Assembly: GCA_036478295.1 (NCBI GenBank)
Contig: JAZGDW010000267.1
Span: 1 to 6,812 of the forward strand
From: Candidatus Krumholzibacteriia bacterium
Lineage (GTDB): Bacteria; Krumholzibacteriota; Krumholzibacteriia; WVZY01
DNA: 6,812 nucleotides
Direction: 5' to 3'
Part shown: positions 1 to 6,441 of the stretch, in pieces
How positions within the stretch are numbered: position 1 is the first letter of the stretch
How the letters are laid out: every line of letters starts with the position of its first letter
Translations under genes and position numbers: made by a program
Notes under the pieces: model-generated
The model's input: only the letters and a program-made list of their open reading frames with translations
What the model was told of the DNA's origin: nothing
Database searches by the model: none

Positions 1-449
1 CCTGGGTAGCTCTTTAGACTTCCCCAGTCGATCCAGTGACGCAGGAGCCTGGTCCCGCGTTTCTTGGTGGGGGCGTCTGGGTCATTTATTATGAAGATCA
101 GCCGTGCGAGGTTGTCCAGCGTGCATCCGAAGTGGAAATAGATACCCTTGATGTGAGCAAAGTACTCTATCGAGTGCATTTCCTGAGCGGTGCGCTGCAG
201 AACCGCGGCGGCTGCGCCGATCGACGTAACCACCTCATAGTGCGACTTTGCAAGCTCCCTGTAGCTGTCTCTGACGGGCTCCGGGATCGTTTGGTTCGAG
301 CTGAGGTTGGAAGCGTTGTTGCCAACGTGGATTGCATATCGGAATTTTACCCAGTTCTCGACGTTGACTTTCAAAACGTCGCGGATATGCGTTTCGGCAA
401 CATCTAGGGTAACTTTCCGATAGTTGAATCCTTTCGGTAGTTTGATCAT
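1..449 (-). CDS. Hypothetical protein, N-terminal 149 aa (continues off the left edge); possible HEPN (Cthe_2314-like) domain
   Basis: Manual translation from ATG 449 shows no stop before base 1: MIKLPKGFNYRKVTLDVAETHIRDVLKVNVENWVKFRYAIHVGNNASNLSSNQTIPEPVRDSYRELAKSHYEVVTSIGAAAAVLQRTAQEMHSIEYFAHIKGIYFHFGCTLDNLARLIFIINDPDAPTKKRGTRLLRHWIDWGSLKSYP. It has an upstream Shine-Dalgarno sequence. Confidence refers to the CDS; the HEPN call is much weaker. Confidence 0.8.
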   Translation of the reverse strand, partial: MIKLPKGFNYRKVTLDVAETHIRDVLKVNVENWVKFRYAIHVGNNASNLSSNQTIPEPVRDSYRELAKSHYEVVTSIGAAAAVLQRTAQEMHSIEYFAHIKGIYFHFGCTLDNLARLIFIINDPDAPTKKRGTRLLRHWIDWGSLKSYP

Positions 450-453
450 AGCG

Positions 454-466
454 TCCTCGTCCTCCC
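454..466 (-). promoter_or_regulatory. Ribosome-binding site of the 449 ORF
   Basis: Minus strand reads GGGAGGACGAGGA-CGCT-ATG, giving two SD-like elements 11 and 4 nt from the ATG. Confidence 0.7.
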
Positions 467-483
467 GCACCTCGGCAAGGGGG

Positions 484-492
484 ATAATAGCA
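484..492 (-). promoter_or_regulatory. Candidate extended -10 promoter for the 449 ORF
   Basis: Minus strand reads TGCTATTAT (TGn + TATTAT), about 35 nt upstream of the ATG. The -35 region is poor. Confidence 0.45.
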
Positions 493-671
493 TTCGGACG
501 CGAACCGGGGGAAGAACGGTGTCTCAATTGGCCCAAAATTGGGGCTATTTACGCCCATGCTTCCCCGGCAGGCTCCCCTTTAACTGGAAGTCGGAGTGAG
601 TGTTATAGTTACGGAAAGTCGACTAGATCGGGAGGAACCGCACCCGCCCCGCCAGCTCCGACACCGAGAGC

Positions 672-3600
672 CTACGAATCCTGGGGTTTGTCCTCGCTCT
701 GTGCGCGGGAACTCTTGGCGATGAGTTTTTTGAGCTCGACCTGGTCGGGGGCGAGCAGTTCCTTGACGCGTTCCGTATTGACGCCGGCCACAATAATCTG
801 ACCGATCTCGGTTTTTACGTCGTCGAGAATACCCAGGTCCTTCATTCCCGCGGTTTGTTTTTGATTGTCATCAGTTGGACTCACGTAATGGATCGACACA
901 CTCTTGTAACGATGGATGAGAAAGAGGTGGATCAAGGTCATCAATCGTTTCTTGCGGAACCCCTCGTCGAATGTGTTCTGGTCGCGGATCGAGAGGATGT
1001 TGCGGTCGCGACGATCCTGGATCGTGGCGAAGATAACATCGGCGGTTCTGGTGCCGGCGCCATCGAGTACGTTCAACTCCAGGAGCTCGGCACCGGCCGT
1101 GTGCGGGCGCAGCTGGACCTCGAGGGTGCCGGGGATACCGTTGTGTTTGGTCCACAACTCGAGCCACGACTCCAGGAGTTTCGGCGGCACTTCGGTCTGG
1201 ACCAGGTGCTGGGCGTGCGTCGAACCTTTGCCCATCGCCTTGGTGGTCGCGGTGCGGCCCGTTACCGCCATGAGGGCGCCGTCGAGACGCGGCCCACCGA
1301 CGTAGCTCTGCGGCGTGCGGTATGGTGAGTCGAGCAGACGAAACTTGCGCTGCAACCTCGCCAGCGCCAGCATCCCATCCTGTTTCAACGCGGTGGCAAA
1401 CTCCTCGGCGGCGAGACCGTCGATCTGGTGACCACCGTAGGTAATGAAGTTGAAGACATACCCGCTCCTCCCCAGCTTCTCCGGGAAACCCCGCATGTCT
1501 TCGTCGCTCATACCGGTCGTGTCCCAGTTGAACGATGGCGACAGATTGTAGGCCAGCATCTTGTCGGGATATATGTCGTGGATTGCGTTTGCGAACTTGC
1601 GCGCGTCGGCCAGGTTCGCGGTCTTGGTCTCCATCCACAGGATGTCGGCAAAGGGAGCCACGGCCAGCGACCGGGCCACCGCATAATCGATACCGCCTTG
1701 TATCTGGTAGTAGCCTTCCGGTGTCTTTGATAATTCGCAATCCCACAGGACCTTGATATCCATCGCTTTTGCCTGCTCCCGCGCTTCCGGAAAGGACACC
1801 CGCCGCGAGAAATCGAGCCATTCTTCGACCGTCATGTCGAACGTCGCACCTTCGTCGATATGAAACTCCATCGCATCGGCCGCGGCCTGACCGAAGGTCT
1901 TGAGACCCGCCTGCATCTGCCAGGCGTCGATGAAGACGGTGGTCACCTCATCCAATGTCGCTTCGACGTCGGCCCCCTCGTCCATGGCCGCGAGACTTCC
2001 ATCCACACGCGACAGGATACCGGCTTGTTCCAACCAGGAGAGCGCCGACCGGTAGGCGGCCCTGGAGACCTTGTACAGCAGGTGCCCGTTTATCTCTTCA
2101 ACACCCGCCTCGTAGAAGCGTTTGAGAACTGCGAGATAGGCGGGCTTGAAGGCGGGTAGCGCGGTGTTGGTGGCGCCGAGTATAAAGGGATGGTCCCGCT
2201 CGTCACCGCGGCCGTCGAGGTAGGTCGCCGCTTCGGCGTCGGTGCGCGCCACGATGATGCCGGGGACCTTCATGATGTCCAGTTGCAGACGCGCCGCGTT
2301 CAGGCGTTTTATCTGCTCGTCGACGGGCACCAGCACCTTGCCGGCCTGGTGGCCGCATTTCTTGGCGCCCGGTTTCTGGTCCTCGATGTGGTAACCGGGA
2401 ACCCCCACTTCGACAAAGCGGCGGATGAGGTTCCTCACGTGCGCCCCGCCGCCGTGACCGGTGTCGGCGTCGGCTATGATAAACGGGCGGTAATCGATCC
2501 TTCTTGCAGCCGCCCGTTCCTTGTCCGTCATCCGCGAGCGTGCAAACTCCTGGTTCTTATCCGCGGCAAGGAGCGCGCATACCAGGGTCGCCGCCTCGTC
2601 CGGCACCTGGCTCAATGGATAGCTGGCCAGATCGGGTCCGGGGTCTTCGGTGACGGACCCCTTGGCTGAAGTTGCCCAGCCGCCGAGATAGATGCCTTCG
2701 ATGCCCATCCGTTTCAACGTCACCGCCTGCCCCGGTGAGTAGGGACCGAACGTGGTTATCTGACTTCGTTTGGAAAACAGCTCCTTCAGCCGTTCGTAGA
2801 ATCCCTCGGCCGCCTGGCGCGCGATGGAGTAGTCCTGCTGGATGGTGCCGCGCTGTGCCACCACCTGGCGGGCCGAGTAGAGACGGGTGATGTCACCGAA
2901 ACGCTCACTCGAAAACCACTTCTCGGTGTCTGCGGTTTCGGTCTCGAGCCAACCCCGTTCGGCGGGCGCTGCCGGTTGTGGCGTGGACGCTTCGGGTGCT
3001 GCCGGTTCGGCCGTGTCCGCTTCGGCCGTGTCCGCAAAATCGAGGTTCTCGGTAAGCCGGGTGCCGTCCCGTTTGAACGTCTCCATGTAGCGTTCGATCC
3101 GTTCCCTGGCGGTCACCAGGTTATGGTTATTCAGATTGAGGTTCAGGAGATCGATATACCATGGGGCTTTCACGTCATCGACGACATAGGTCTCGACGAT
3201 CTCCCGCGCAATGGGCAGGGTGGTCGTTTTGGAGTCATCGTGGACGTCCTTGTCCTTTGCCTCGAGGAGTTTCCGGTACTCTTCCTCCAGTAGTTTCTTG
3301 AAGACCTTGGCGGTGAATACGTCTCCCACCTTCAATCCCGTCTCACGATCGTCTTCGGTCAGCACCGCGCCCTTGTGGATCCACTCCCACAGGATGCTGA
3401 GACGGATCTCTCCGGTCGCCATGTCTTCCATGAGGTACAGGATGTTGTCGTCGTCGAAGAAGTCGGCCGGTTTGAGCGCCGCCGCCTGGAAACCCTGACT
3501 GAAGGCGTTGCCGTACTGGAGCGCGACACTGAGAAGATTGCGCGCCCCGCGGATGGTCCTCGGCGCGGGTTCCAGCAGGGTCAGACCGTCGGCGTCGGCC

Positions 3601-4955
3601 TGGGTGTAGGTCAGTGGCGGGAAGTCGCTCCCGAGTTGGTTGTCTTCCCCGACCCGCTCCCACACCGGTCGTACGATGTGCACCATTTTCCAGTGGGCGA
3701 CCCACTTGCCGCTAGCACCCCGCCGCTGCTCGCGCGCGCCACCGGCCACGGCTTTCTTCATACTGTTGGTGACGCCCTCTTTCGACCCCACGGGAATGTT
3801 GGGCTCCATCCCTCCCTGCCACAAAGCGAAGTTGCCTTTGAGGTCCGGTGTGTTCACCGCGCGTCGCACGCGGTCTTCGTAGTGTTTCATGTAGGCGTAG
3901 GTCATGGTGATGGCTTCGATATTGGGATTGATGAAACCTTTATCCCACGCCATCGCATCGGCCACGCTGTTTATGTAGTCCCAGCGGCCGGTGTTGAAGC
4001 CGACGAAGTGCCGGCCCAGGGCCGCGCGGATTTCCATGAGCTGAAACGTAGCCTCGAGCTGTTCCACCAGCACGTAGACCTTGATGGTGCCGTTGGGGAG
4101 GGCGACGTAGTCTTCGAGCACGGTCAGCATGTCGTTCCACAGCGCCGCCTCTTCCGCCGTCTGGATCTTGGGCAGGTAGAGGACGATGGACGAGCCAGCT
4201 TTGAGGAACTGCTGGTAGTTGTTTACGACGTACAGAACCGTGTCGACAATGGAGGCCGAAAACCCCTGGCCGTCGCGATCGCGGATGTGACGGTCGTCGA
4301 GGTGCAACCCGCGCGCGCGGAAAATCTTCGTGGTAAAGTCCAGCTGCCCGCGCAAGTCGTCGATGATCTCACGCGCCAGAAATCCCTTCGACCACTCGTT
4401 CATCTCCACGGCCACCTGCTCGGCCACCTTCATGAACGGCGGGTCTTTTTGAATGGCAAGTTTCAGGTTGCGCTGGTTGTCGAGCGACATGGTGGTTATC
4501 TGGCCCATGGCGTCTTCGCCGTCGAACATCCAGCCATCGGCGCCGGAGAGGAGTGCGTAGGCGACGTTGCGGATGCTTTTCTCGGTGGGGGAATTCGGTT
4601 TGGCGCCGGGCCCGGTGCCCTGAATCCACTGCCGCTTGAGGTCGGCCGGTATCTCCGAACCGATGAACTTGCCGTCGCGTGCGTCTTGCACCTTGATCCG
4701 GGTGCGCGGAATGTAGCTGTTCGGGTCGAGGAAGCTGATTCTCTGGTGGTTTCTGGCGCGCTCCGCCCGGCGGCGGATGCGACCGGCCATGACCTGTTTT
4801 TGATCCTCGTTGAACGGTGCCAGAAACGCGAGGGCGCCCATGACTTCCGGCGTGTAGACGTCCCCGTAGGCGCTCTCGAGACCGGTGCGGATCTCCAGTG
4901 CGTCGCTACCGGCGGCGGTGATGGACTGCTTGTTGTTCTGGTGGGTGGTACTCAT
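672..4955 (-). CDS. aceB-aceA: Bifunctional malate synthase / isocitrate lyase (ICL2-type) fusion protein, 1427 aa
   Basis: One uninterrupted ORF, ATG 4955 to TAG 672-674. The N-terminal half has malate synthase motifs: [51 protein letters not shown]. The C-terminal half has isocitrate lyase motifs: [27 protein letters not shown] (2349-2363), [25 protein letters not shown]. Confidence 0.97.
675..1208 (-). other. ICL2 C-terminal GNAT-like acyl-CoA-binding regulatory domain (aa ~1250-1427)
   Basis: [16 protein letters not shown]...[18 protein letters not shown]...[18 protein letters not shown]...HYVSPTDDN matches the recalled C-terminal domain of M. tuberculosis ICL2. Boundaries are approximate. 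Confidence 0.85.
1209..2957 (-). other. aceA: Isocitrate lyase catalytic region, long ICL2 type with internal helical insert (aa ~667-1249)
   Basis: KKCGH with Cys867. The segments [54 protein letters not shown] and [13 protein letters not shown] closely match my recollection of Mycobacterium ICL2. The Trp in LWMET and Thr in FITY point to ICL rather than 2-methylisocitrate lyase. Confidence 0.93.
3006..3035. repeat. Perfect 15-bp tandem duplication in the interdomain linker (ADTAE x2)
   Basis: TTCGGCCGTGTCCGC occurs at 3006-3020 and 3021-3035. A second near-repeat, GGG(C/T)GCTGCCGGTT at 2964-2977 and 2994-3007, encodes PAAP twice. Confidence 0.95.
3036..4955 (-). other. aceB: Malate synthase domain (aa ~1-640) of the fusion, divergent MS-A-like
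   Basis: Candidate catalytic Arg213 (FRARG, 4317-4319). Mg2+ ligands Glu298 (4062-4064) and Asp326 (GRWDY, 3978-3980) show the 28-residue spacing known from malate synthases. Catalytic base Asp511 lies in [10 protein letters not shown] (3423-3425). Confidence 0.93.
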
Positions 4956-4962
4956 GACCGAT

Positions 4963-4968
4963 CTTTCT
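4963..4968 (-). promoter_or_regulatory. Probable ribosome-binding site of the fusion gene
   Basis: AGAAAG on the minus strand, 7 nt upstream of ATG 4955. Confidence 0.5.
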
Positions 4969-5017
4969 ATTCGGAGAGGGCATACCGGTACACGGCCATG
5001 TCCTCATCCTCGTGTAG

Positions 5018-5032
5018 TTTCACATTGTAAAA
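5018..5032. promoter_or_regulatory. AT-rich imperfect palindrome, candidate operator
   Basis: TTTCACA-T-TGTAAAA with 6 of 7 arm pairs complementary, in the intergenic region upstream of the fusion gene. It overlaps a minus-strand TACAAT (5024-5029). Confidence 0.45.
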
Positions 5033-5080
5033 GAAGTTCAAAACGGCGACCACGACCAGATTCCGGAGAACCATGGGTCC

Positions 5081-5091
5081 AATATAGCACA
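5081..5091 (-). promoter_or_regulatory. Candidate extended -10 sigma70-type promoter for the fusion gene
   Basis: Minus strand reads TGTGCTATATT (TRTGn + TATATT). No good -35 hexamer at 17 nt. Confidence 0.5.
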
Positions 5092-5109
5092 AGTTTTCAT
5101 TCTCGGCGT

Positions 5110-6441
5110 TCATGACGTGGACGTCCGTGCGGCACCGGTTCCCGATCCCTCAGTCTGCCCCACCCGAAGAGACAAAAGAAACACCCCGAAGATAACCACC
5201 GCAGACAAGACGAACACCCGAACATTCAGCAGCGTAAATAGCATCCCACCGAGCACGAGCCCCAGGATGCTCGCCACCGCACCGCAGCTGGCCGCCACTC
5301 CCTGCACGGCGCCCTGGTACTTGTCCCCCGCCGTCTTCGAGAGGATGGACACCACCGACGGCCACATAAGCCCGTTCCCCAGCGCCAGCAGCACGACCCC
5401 CGTGTAGAGCCGCACCATGTTTGGCGAGCAAAAGAAGGGAAAGCTCGCGGCAAGAATGAGGCTCCCCACGACGGCCAGCGTCGACTCCGGCCACCTCCTG
5501 GACGCACGGCTTAGGACCGGTCCCTGTACGAGGGCCATCATGAGACTCAAGACCACAAAGAAAATCCCCATCTCCTGAACGCTCCAGCCTAGGTCCCTGG
5601 ACGCATGCACCGGAAAGGCGATGTAGAAGAAGTTGAATCCCAGCATGACGAGAAAATAAATCCCCAGCAAAAGCGACACGTCCGGTAGCCGCAGCACCCC
5701 CCGGAACGAGAGCTTCTCGGCGGCCTTCATTTCAAAGCACGGCTTGTGGTCCTGTCCGAGTACCTTGTGCACGCCGACCTGTTCGGGGTCCTCGCTCAGG
5801 ACGCACGGCCTGGACTCCGGCAGCTTGAAGAGAATCATGAGACTGGCGACGACAGAGATCGCAAACGCGGCGAGCACCGGCAGCAGTTCCCCCAACGAGG
5901 TGCCACCCAACACGCCGGCGAGTGCCGGCCCGAGGATGAACCCGAGGTTTGCCGATACCGCCATCTTGCCGAAGTTCGCAACGCGGTTCTCCTGGCTCGA
6001 TATATCGGCGAGGTAGGCGTTTGCCACCGAGATGTTGCCGCCGGTAGCGCCGTCGAACGCCCGCGCCAGAAAGAGCACGAGTAGCGGCAGTGTCAGCGCG
6101 AACTGTCCCAGCGCCTGGGAATCCACACTGACGAGCGGCCGCGTGGGTAGGGTGAAGGCAACGAGAAAGATACCCCAGGAGAAGAGCGTCCCGAGCTGGC
6201 TTAGCAGAAGGATCTTCCTCCGGCCGTAGACATCGCTCCACCGCCCGAGGATCGGGGCGCCGATCAGCTGGAACACCGAGTACGTCGCCCCCATAACACC
6301 GTAGATGAGCGCATTCCCGCCCCATCGTGTGACAAGAAAGACGAGAAAGGGCAGAACGATACTGAACCCGAGCGTGCCAACGAAGTTGACACCCAGAATG
6401 GGGTAGATCGAGACTTGTGGCAGGCCGTCACGTTCTCGCAT
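5110..6441 (-). CDS. Major facilitator superfamily transporter, TetA/DHA1-like, 443 aa
   Basis: About 12 hydrophobic segments in two halves. Motif A GRWSDVYGRR (6217-6246), motif B-like LARAFDGATGG, and antiporter motif C GFILGPALAGVLG are present. Confidence 0.93.
   Translation of the reverse strand: MRERDGLPQVSIYPILGVNFVGTLGFSIVLPFLVFLVTRWGGNALIYGVMGATYSVFQLIGAPILGRWSDVYGRRKILLLSQLGTLFSWGIFLVAFTLPTRPLVSVDSQALGQFALTLPLLVLFLARAFDGATGGNISVANAYLADISSQENRVANFGKMAVSANLGFILGPALAGVLGGTSLGELLPVLAAFAISVVASLMILFKLPESRPCVLSEDPEQVGVHKVLGQDHKPCFEMKAAEKLSFRGVLRLPDVSLLLGIYFLVMLGFNFFYIAFPVHASRDLGWSVQEMGIFFVVLSLMMALVQGPVLSRASRRWPESTLAVVGSLILAASFPFFCSPNMVRLYTGVVLLALGNGLMWPSVVSILSKTAGDKYQGAVQGVAASCGAVASILGLVLGGMLFTLLNVRVFVLSAVVIFGVFLLSLRVGQTEGSGTGAARTSTS

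Follow-up and report, generated by a model that had tools for sequence, protein, structure and literature searches.

The studied stretch of bacterial DNA (6,812 nt in total, hereafter the window) contains a fused gene encoding malate synthase and isocitrate lyase (ICL) in one polypeptide, and this observation is confirmed. The gene occupies positions 672..4955 of the minus strand, starts with ATG, comprises 1427 codons plus a stop codon, and has full-length homologues with 67-77% identity. Both the ORF list and the translation yield one uninterrupted reading frame, as claimed in the first-pass annotation of this DNA, which names no strand, and the order of Pfam domains (MS_TIM-barrel at residues 211-441, MS_C at 505-570, ICL from 673) places malate synthase first and ICL second, also in line with that annotation; a profile search for both enzyme families, proposed there as a check, finds domains of both above the Pfam cut-offs. 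The domain and homologue matches are far beyond chance. We consider it probable that the product is a bifunctional glyoxylate-shunt enzyme, in which a long malate synthase is tethered to an acetyl-CoA-gated ICL2 tetramer.

Domain Composition of the Fused Protein

The domains of the gene are given by their positions on the minus strand. The malate synthase half, belonging to a divergent “long” MSA-like clade, spans 3036..4898 (approximately residues 20-640), as delimited by Pfam, PDB sequence and fold matches. It is followed by a Pro/Ala/Glu/Thr-rich linker at 2955..3035 (residues 641-667; pLDDT <50 at 642-666), the ICL2 catalytic domain at 1206..2954 (residues 668-1250; Pfam ICL and TIGR01346), and a C-terminal GNAT-like domain at 711..1193 (residues 1255-1415; 8g8k match), predicted to bind acetyl-CoA. 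The upstream neighbour, a 443-aa MFS transporter (5110..6441, minus strand; Pfam MFS_1, E 1e-42), lies outside this system. A promoter scan of the 400-5300 region yields three promoter-like sites vs. 0.9 expected, none of them upstream of the gene on the same strand, and a terminator scan of the same region, five terminator-like sites vs. 4.2 expected.

Malate Synthase Half

PF01274 (MS_TIM-barrel) matches residues 211-441 with E 1.9e-47 and 161.8 bits (cut-off 26.4), and PF20659 (MS_C), residues 505-570 with 32.6 bits (cut-off 23.1). The MSA equivalog model TIGR01344 scores 242.1 bits, that is, below its cut-off of 594.5, so this half is not classed as an MSA equivalog, and, since the score is far below this curated cut-off, the substrate range assigned here is a presumed one. 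As the MSA model fails and public sources label the fused protein only “isocitrate lyase/phosphoenolpyruvate mutase family,” automated pathway reconstructions may call the shunt incomplete in these lineages. PF20656 (MS_N) is undetected in the fused protein and, among the matches listed, is present in only three of those 119 clusters; the AlphaFold2 model folds residues 21-135 with confidence. The PDB sequence search matched 3cux and 3cuz (E ~1e-45), and the fold match to 3cuz has TM 0.85 on target.

The four malate synthase catalytic residues, located by alignment to E. coli MSA (3cuz), lie within 3423..4319 of the minus strand: R213 (4317-4319), E298 (4062-4064), D326 (3978-3980), and D511 (3423-3425) align with R166, E250, D278, and D447, respectively. 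We take R166 to be the catalytic arginine of E. coli MSA, and E250 and D278, its Mg-binding acidic residues. Asp447 is the active-site base position (PMC3112382). All four are invariant in 77 out of 77 family members, and on these grounds we reject the idea that this half is a pseudo-enzyme.

Isocitrate Lyase Half

PF00463 (ICL) matches from residue 673 with E 3e-128 and 429.1 bits (cut-off 26), and TIGR01346, with 438.9 bits, is above its cut-off of 275.9. The earlier label “ICL2” holds, as residues 663-1415 align with full-length Mycobacterium tuberculosis ICL2 (6edw/9obo, ~1100 bits); moreover, 8g8k, the C-terminal domain of the latter, matches residues 1255-1415 with E 2.1e-51. The KKCGH loop, named as the catalytic motif of isocitrate lyase (PMC6788997), is at 2349..2363 (minus strand, residues 865-869) and is kept in all 34 malate synthase–ICL2 cassettes, in one of them as KRCGH. 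With this loop and the four malate synthase residues in place, the intact catalytic motifs claimed for both enzymes are indeed there, and both halves look catalytically competent by sequence.

The helical insert found in isocitrate lyases of Groups II and III, as defined in PMC6788997, is located at 1725..2168 (minus strand, approximately residues 930-1077, corresponding to M. tuberculosis 278-427). The 9obo alignment is unbroken across this region, and residues 936-1064 are all-helical in the AlphaFold2 model. R1315 corresponds to a residue in contact with the acetyl group, M. tuberculosis R665 (PMC13102942), and is kept in 32 of the 34 cassettes, while E1290, the counterpart of E640, is retained as E in 23 and replaced by D in seven of them. 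Judging by these alignments, the second half of the fused protein is a complete Group III isocitrate lyase with both the helical insert and the C-terminal domain. Such enzymes have been stated to have “so far only been observed in mycobacteria” (PMC13102942), a claim contradicted by public sequence data, as Group III isocitrate lyases are found in many other phyla.

Proposed Mechanism

M. tuberculosis ICL2 is a homotetramer whose lyase activity is switched on by acetyl-CoA or propionyl-CoA (PMC6788997). By analogy, the ICL2 half would form a tetrameric core, and its C-terminal domains would bind acetyl-CoA, turning the lyase on, so that glyoxylate would be made only when acetyl-CoA, the co-substrate of malate synthase, is at hand. 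[quoted passage not shown] The data directly establish the ORF, its domain make-up, its conserved residues, its distribution, and the switching of the cassette between fused and split forms; for the fused protein, we infer both activities, the tetramer, the acetyl-CoA activation, and any kinetic benefit. If this mechanism is true, one gene provides the whole glyoxylate shunt together with a built-in acetyl-CoA switch, and would be a compact building block in engineered acetate assimilation. The family would then also be a natural test bed for comparing a fusion with a coupled operon, as closely related fused and split versions exist.

Fused and Split Forms of the Cassette

The search for full-length homologues spanning the junction, another check proposed in the first-pass annotation, returned among the best 120 rows 119 further protein clusters (1258-1428 aa) with the above identity of 67-77%, and all 119 are full-length fusions with both Pfam domains. 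Out of the best 80 related species loci, the two genes are fused in 16, which carry six phylum labels, and split but tightly coupled in 19; a further 42 contain malate synthase alone. Hence the architecture is not rare, contrary to what had been supposed: the fused layout occurs widely among uncultured bacteria, and the studied gene adds another member to an already known family. A search of the ESM Atlas returned only fusion, ICL2 and nematode clusters, as expected.

The fusion represents one form of a mobile cassette of two genes, in which malate synthase precedes ICL2. Split relatives carry an ATG 1-93 nt past the malate synthase stop codon, together with a GGAG-type ribosome-binding site, or an ATGA overlap; in one split locus the ATG is 211 nt past the stop. 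In six split loci (L007, L012, L015, L024, L058, L078) both genes are in one frame with a stop codon between them. The malate synthase tree requires seven changes between the fused and split states, and the ICL2 tree, four, with at least three in each forced by well-supported branches, and a single fused clade is rejected by the AU test (p 0.000378). On the trees, the fused and split forms are intermingled, and the fused state is no fixed innovation. The fusion probably originated when a translationally coupled pair of malate synthase and ICL2 genes lost the stop codon between them, an event that occurred or was reverted several times.

The same data bear on the benefit of being fused. The single ORF could be a by-product of stop-codon loss between coupled genes, with no gain over the split pair, and we regard this as a serious alternative, although with a less than even chance. 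It agrees with the forced switches and the rejection of one fused clade, with the six loci where a stop codon separates the same-frame genes, with the fused form accounting for a minority, 4 of 18, of the carriers in the window's phylum, and with the poor conservation of the linker sequence among fused proteins; the frequent switching argues that the covalent linkage brings little advantage. It is less easily reconciled with the persistence of the fused state through whole deep clades (seven Dadabacteria/Thermodesulfobacteriota rows and five Holophagae/Planctomycetota rows), and with the acidic character kept by the linkers (Glu 20%, Asp 9% of residues). This alternative touches only the benefit of fusion; the enzyme function is the same as in the preferred reading, that of a bifunctional, acetyl-CoA-gated shunt enzyme.

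A broader extension of the preferred reading is possible but rather doubtful. The long malate synthase and ICL2 might constitute, fused or split, a dedicated acetyl-CoA-gated two-enzyme machine, in which the ICL2 C-terminal domain would sense the acetyl-CoA pool used by malate synthase. This feed-forward control would prevent glyoxylate build-up and replace AceK, and mycobacterial ICL2, at present seen as peculiar to mycobacteria, would be a remnant of this widespread cassette after loss of its malate synthase partner.

We do not see conserved neighbours of the cassette: no recurrent partner was found in 111 ORFs flanking 34 fused or split loci (the 35th, L019, which hardly differs from L018, was omitted). 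Scattered neighbours of the cassettes include AceK, a RamB-like regulator, an acyl-CoA ligase, and IS110 transposases.

Linker

The linker contains two in-frame tandem repeat units (2963..3035; Tandem Repeats Finder), a 30-nt unit in 2.1 copies at 2963-3025 and a 15-nt unit in 2.3 copies at 3002-3035. Taken as the distance between ENLDF and the conserved Trp, the linker length in 61 fused proteins ranges between 19 and 50 residues, with 39 in the window and a median of 26, about half of this median span being ICL2's own N-terminal helix. Residues 625 to 697 contain no in-frame start codon, which precludes separate initiation of ICL2 at its usual N-terminus. As the linker is disordered (pLDDT <50) and pTM is 0.56 in the AlphaFold2 model of the fused protein, no fixed inter-enzyme interface is predicted.

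Channelling, the idea put forward in the first-pass annotation, is already in print as a rationale for the malate synthase-ICL fusion, with glyoxylate given as a reactive intermediate (Henry 2016, PMC4921024, Table 3). In its strict form, malate synthase would be docked at a fixed place on the ICL2 tetramer, and glyoxylate would bypass bulk solvent. The short tether of most fused homologues (the above median of 26 residues) and the retention of the fused state by whole clades speak for such an arrangement; still, we consider it unlikely, as the model predicts no confident interface, the linker length varies and in the window is increased by the tandem repeats, the fused and split states interchange on the trees, and, according to Henry 2016 (PMC4921024), fusion as such failed to promote channelling in an earlier study.

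Genomic Context

The fused gene is the sole ICL-family and the sole malate synthase match in the window's genome (90.9% complete), which also encodes acetyl-CoA synthetase (977 bits, cut-off 725) and citrate synthase; AceK was not found in this genome at that completeness. In genomes with stand-alone members of the malate synthase clade (Bacteroidota, Balneolota), these adjoin glycolate/lactate-oxidase-like and lactate-permease-family genes, and isocitrate lyase is present in none of the five genomes. This gene context supports a glyoxylate-consuming role for the clade.

These observations are relevant to the possibility of a different chemistry, with no glyoxylate shunt at all, where the ICL2 half would be mainly a methylisocitrate lyase or the malate synthase half would act on another acyl-CoA or 2-oxoacid. 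Indeed, M. tuberculosis ICL2 acts as a methylisocitrate lyase as well as an isocitrate lyase (PMC6788997), and the malate synthase half is below the MSA equivalog cut-off. We find this very improbable, however, given the invariance of all four malate synthase catalytic residues, the glycolate-oxidase-like genes adjoining the stand-alone clade members, which point to a second glyoxylate source, and the window's genome having no other isocitrate lyase or malate synthase match; methylisocitrate cleavage yields no glyoxylate, so the linked malate synthase would be left without a substrate.

The gene is absent from a genome of the same genus (92% complete) and present in two of 12 other genomes of the family, and thus is accessory. 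The GC content of the contig is 0.602, compared to 0.598 in the genome, and its tetranucleotide distance is at the 48th percentile of 95 similar-sized contigs. On composition, we reject the possibility that the contig was misbinned or recently transferred, although the patchy distribution marks the cassette as accessory.

In the read check across the junction, suggested in the first-pass annotation, a 474-nt contig from a public run, ~88% alike, spans the junction with 33 letters replacing 72, the difference of 39 keeping the frame, and its junction, read by hand, has no stop codon; thus only a relative's contig bridges the junction, in frame. The window's own junction is not confirmed by independent reads: no public run with half or more of the sampled junction words is listed (the best shares being 0.24 and 0.21), and no RNA runs holding junction words are listed. 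A chimeric contig, an assembly error merging two genes, or wrong binning can be practically dismissed, despite the contig being just 6812 bp long and its junction words lacking from public runs at that level, as the same single ORF is seen in independent assemblies (16 species loci, 119 listed protein clusters), the relative's contig reads through in frame, and the composition fits the genome.

Comparison With Known Systems

Bacterial malate synthase-ICL fusions were noted in print in 2006 (Kondrashov, PMC1630690) and again in 2016 (Henry, PMC4921024), so the Anaeromyxobacter precedent named in the first-pass annotation is a genuine one; a literature search turned up no biochemical work on such a bacterial fusion, again as stated there. 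As in the Anaeromyxobacter fusion (PMC1630690; PMC4921024), both glyoxylate-shunt enzymes here reside on a single bacterial polypeptide. The Euglena gracilis and Acanthamoeba proteins have the same domain order and both reactions on one chain (PMC1630690; PMC8219788; PMC13632647), but these fusions are eukaryotic and mitochondrial, whereas that of the window is bacterial. The nematode (C. elegans) protein combines the same two enzymes in the reversed order, isocitrate lyase first (PMC1630690). The representative search also yielded a 986-aa type, malate synthase then ICL, with canonical MSA domains (P0291), and a 967-aa representative with the ICL-then-malate synthase order (P0279).

Compared to malate synthase A (E. 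coli AceB, 3CUZ; Bacillus anthracis, 3CUX), the malate synthase half has a common fold (TM 0.85-0.86 on target) and the same four catalytic residues, but identity of only 26%, and it is longer, ~640 residues vs. ~530 (PMC3112382). It forms a clade of its own, in which the other members share 70-82% identity with the window's half. The closest known counterpart of the other half is M. tuberculosis ICL2, with 64-67% identity to its chains over 534-536 columns; the differences are the 640-residue malate synthase joined here to the N-terminus, and the host, which is an uncultured non-actinobacterial lineage.

Domain Organization of the Fused Protein

The fused gene is one ORF on the minus strand of the window (672..4955, ATG start, 1427 codons, by ORF listing and translation), and its product matches in Pfam the malate synthase TIM barrel (residues 211–441, E 1.9e-47), the malate synthase C-terminal domain (residues 505–570) and, from residue 673, the isocitrate lyase family (E 3e-128). 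The protein scores 438.9 bits with the NCBIfam isocitrate lyase equivalog (cut-off 275.9) and 242.1 bits with the malate synthase A (MSA) equivalog TIGR01344 (cut-off 594.5). These domains bear out the first-pass annotation of a single ORF encoding both enzymes, malate synthase first; judged by sequence, the malate synthase part of the product is divergent and the isocitrate lyase part after it orthodox.

The malate synthase half matches the B. anthracis and E. coli MSA both in sequence (3cux, 3cuz, E about 1e-45) and in fold (TM 0.85–0.86 on target, 26% identity). Residues R213, E298, D326 and D511 align to R166, E250, D278 and D447 of E. coli MSA and are invariant in all 77 family members, so that the catalytic motifs of this half are intact, as had been claimed; R213, E298 and D326 presumably have the catalytic roles of their E. 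coli counterparts. D447 is the position of the active-site base in E. coli MSA (PMC3112382).

Residues 663–1415 and M. tuberculosis ICL2 (6edw, 9obo) can be aligned over the full length at about 1100 bits, the C-terminal domain (residues 1255–1415) matches the separately solved 8g8k (E 2.1e-51), and a fold search of the model retrieves ICL2 chains at 64–67% identity over 534–536 columns. The end-to-end alignment, together with the KKCGH catalytic loop (residues 865–869, from the family alignment), confirms the proposed ICL2 type and intact lyase motif. The helical insert defining Group II and Group III isocitrate lyases, M. tuberculosis residues 278–427 (PMC6788997), has its counterpart by alignment at about residues 930–1077, which are all-helical in the model. 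Among 34 cassettes (malate synthase followed by ICL2, fused or split), R1315, counterpart of the acetyl-contacting arginine R665 of M. tuberculosis (PMC13102942), is retained in 32, and the position of E1290, counterpart of E640, is occupied by E in 23 and by D in seven.

The AlphaFold2 model covers residues 1–1200, the final 227 residues including the C-terminal domain lying outside it, and was built from a 61-sequence alignment (mean pLDDT 79.8, pTM 0.56). Both enzymes are predicted as confidently folded, their mutual position not being fixed by the prediction, and residues 642–666 fall below pLDDT 50. In 61 fused proteins the linker stretch, taken to run from ENLDF up to the first Trp conserved in ICL2, has 19–50 residues (median 26) and an acidic composition (Glu 20%, Asp 9%). 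In the window it has 39 residues, the second longest of the 61, the extra length being due to in-frame tandem DNA repeats (15-nt unit, 2.3 copies; 30-nt unit, 2.1 copies).

Integrity of the Junction

There is no in-frame ATG, GTG or TTG between residues 625 and 697, hence a separate ICL2 start at the usual N-terminus is impossible. No independent reads over the window's exact junction were found among public runs, the best of which contains 0.24 of sampled words. A 474-nt contig of the public sequencing run X1, about 88% alike, spans the junction with 33 letters against the 72 of the window (2955–3026); the 39-letter difference is in-frame, and the replacement, read by hand, has no stop. We observe no sign of wrong binning, as GC content is 0.602 in the contig and 0.598 in the genome, and the tetranucleotide distance of the contig is at the 48th percentile of 95 contigs of 4–12 kb. 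The same uninterrupted ORF is present in 16 species-representative genomes, and in one of them (locus L006) it was verified directly.

Distribution of Fused and Split Forms

In the protein search 8000 candidates were scored and 593 proteins fell within E 0.001; 119 other clusters listed (1258–1428 aa, 67–77% identity) all contain both Pfam families. A species scan, one genome each, yielded at least 648 stretches encoding a relative. The best 80 of them, a set biased towards the query, were sorted by their open frames into 16 fused loci, 19 split loci with the malate synthase gene directly before the ICL2 gene, 42 loci in which the fetched flank shows the malate synthase and no ICL2, and three truncated by the contig end. 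Six NCBI phylum labels are represented among the fused loci (Thermodesulfobacteriota including Dadabacteria, Acidobacteriota, Planctomycetota, Nitrospirota, Krumholzibacteriota, and Spirochaetota), and the split loci extend the range to Calditrichota, Verrucomicrobiota, Gemmatimonadota, and Pseudomonadota, all being labels of public MAG records that may be wrong. With these numbers of clusters, loci and phylum labels, the architecture can no longer be called rare, as it initially was.

Stand-alone ICL2-type proteins (at least 120 listed, 739–975 aa, 69–77% identity to the ICL2 half) have source names including Dadabacteria, Gammaproteobacteria, Caldithrix, and Acidobacteria, which runs counter to PMC13102942, where Group III isocitrate lyases are said to have “so far only been observed in mycobacteria”.

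In the phylum of the window the cassette was found in 18 out of 208 species genomes (E ≤ 1e-150): it is fused in four (G000, G007, G043, and G004), present as separate adjacent matches in ten, represented by the ICL2 half only in three, and unclassed in one. An internal stop in the G004 fusion was discarded, the flagged TGA being the terminal stop. Since a same-genus genome (92% complete) has no cassette match, and only two of 12 other genomes of the family carry it, the cassette is accessory and patchy; one further family genome has canonical aceB/aceA-type genes only (32–36% identical).

In source databases the fused proteins are named “isocitrate lyase/phosphoenolpyruvate mutase family protein” or “isocitrate lyase”; given such names and the low TIGR01344 score, the malate synthase may be missed by automatic pathway calls. 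Positions 5995–10257 of L006 contain one 1420-aa fused ORF, against a 794-aa “isocitrate lyase” (P0138) listed for a contig of identical length (154,083 bases), possibly a truncated public annotation of the fused gene.

Fusion and Fission

Seven changes of the fused state are needed on the malate synthase tree (77 halves), at least three of them forced by branches with SH-aLRT ≥ 95; the ICL2 tree (34 halves, without L005 and L064, both cut) needs four, at least three forced. Loci L054 and L075 (too short), L034 and L068 were left out of the former tree, the last two because their stand-alone malate synthase is matched in two frames (6001–7864 and 6200–7874, respectively), indicating a frameshift or sequencing error. 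When both halves of the 34 cassettes are concatenated, a single clade of the 16 fused rows is rejected by the AU test (p 0.000378, log-likelihood difference 263), a p-value weakened by the fused group having been named only after tree inspection.

The ease of switching is explained by the junction layout. In split loci malate synthase stops a few residues past the conserved ENLDF, and ICL2 starts 1–93 nt downstream (211 nt in L011), preceded by a GGAG-type site; the genes overlap by ATGA in L044 and L049, and in six loci (L007, L012, L015, L024, L058, and L078) both are in one frame with a stop codon between them.

Genomic Context

The genome of the window (3.5 Mb, 316 contigs, 90.9% complete, 5% contamination) has the fused gene as its sole match to the isocitrate lyase and malate synthase families. 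Acetyl-CoA synthetase (977 bits, cut-off 725) and citrate synthase are present, and AceK was not found in this 90.9% complete assembly.

We see no conservation of cassette neighbors across relatives (scattered examples are L008 781–2325, L009 1474–3009, L072 3695–5479, L006 10439–11867, and L059 10884–11984). Some cassettes adjoin an HTH and Peptidase_M78 regulator, which we take to be RamB-like, others AceK (a Udaeobacter-labelled MAG), and transposase genes lie beside cassettes in L006 (IS110-type and DDE-type) and L059 (IS110-type). Immediately upstream of the fused gene, on the same strand, the window encodes a 443-aa MFS transporter (5110–6441, minus), whose likeness to tetracycline-efflux-type MFS families scores well below their cut-offs (144.9 bits against 475). 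The ORF at 3–536 (minus) leaves the contig end and has a probable Met start at 449; no Pfam or NCBIfam family was assigned to it, apart from a weak DUF7367 match (E 0.007), and the Atlas search led only to clusters of hypothetical proteins (0.90) and to a lead for Imm15 (0.87).

Malate Synthases Without ICL2 and Multi-Enzyme Proteins

The divergent “long” malate synthase clade also includes stand-alone loci from Bacteroidota or Balneolota (L030, L053, L083, L057, L046, L035, L045, and L070). Five of five such genomes lack an isocitrate lyase family match, the control search being positive in eight of 14 reference genomes. Neighboring genes encode proteins with a LUD domain, fused FAD-oxidase proteins (about 960–990 aa) and lactate-permease-family proteins; this setting looks like the glycolate-utilization type, comparable to the E. 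coli glc operon. Two of five further malate-synthase-only genomes have an unlinked ICL2-sized isocitrate lyase. The pairing of one malate synthase clade with two different glyoxylate sources supports the assigned chemistry.

We also observed giant proteins whose malate synthase and isocitrate lyase modules share about 40% identity with those of the window: P0300 (4875 aa, with AceK and aldo/keto reductase), P0251 (3052 aa, with a PEP carboxykinase module), P0254 (2140 aa), and further representatives of 1950–4828 aa.

Possible Mechanism and Comparison With Known Systems

In M. tuberculosis, ICL2 forms a tetramer whose C-terminal domains bind acetyl-CoA or propionyl-CoA; binding causes a rearrangement of the enzyme and higher lyase activity (PMC6788997; PMC13102942). 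By analogy, the fused protein may assemble via its ICL2 core and would make glyoxylate only with acetyl-CoA bound, and the tethered malate synthase would then turn it into malate, using acetyl-CoA. Being fused, the two enzymes are necessarily made in equal amounts and stay close together. The fusion might also channel glyoxylate; a fixed tunnel is made less likely by the disordered linker, the moderate pTM and the frequency of fused/split switches.

The terms malate synthase, fused and fusion are absent from the two M. tuberculosis ICL2 papers, and no biochemical study of a bacterial fusion was found in the literature searched, where subscription journals are mostly missing. An Anaeromyxobacter fusion had been noted by Kondrashov et al. 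(2006; PMC1630690). Table 3 of Henry et al. (2016; PMC4921024) gives the isocitrate lyase/malate synthase fusion of Anaeromyxobacter sp. Fw109-5 among fusions around unstable metabolites. Bacterial fusions of this kind were thus known but uncharacterized; the present analysis adds the series of fused, split, unlinked and stand-alone forms, the AU-test rejection of one origin for the fused state, the lengthening of the linker by repeats, and the glycolate-type setting of the stand-alone malate synthase clade. The similarity to M. tuberculosis ICL2 extends over its whole length, including the helical insert and the C-terminal domain, while the similarity to E. coli and B. anthracis MSA comprises the fold and the four catalytic residues, the difference being the low identity and a score under the TIGR01344 cut-off.
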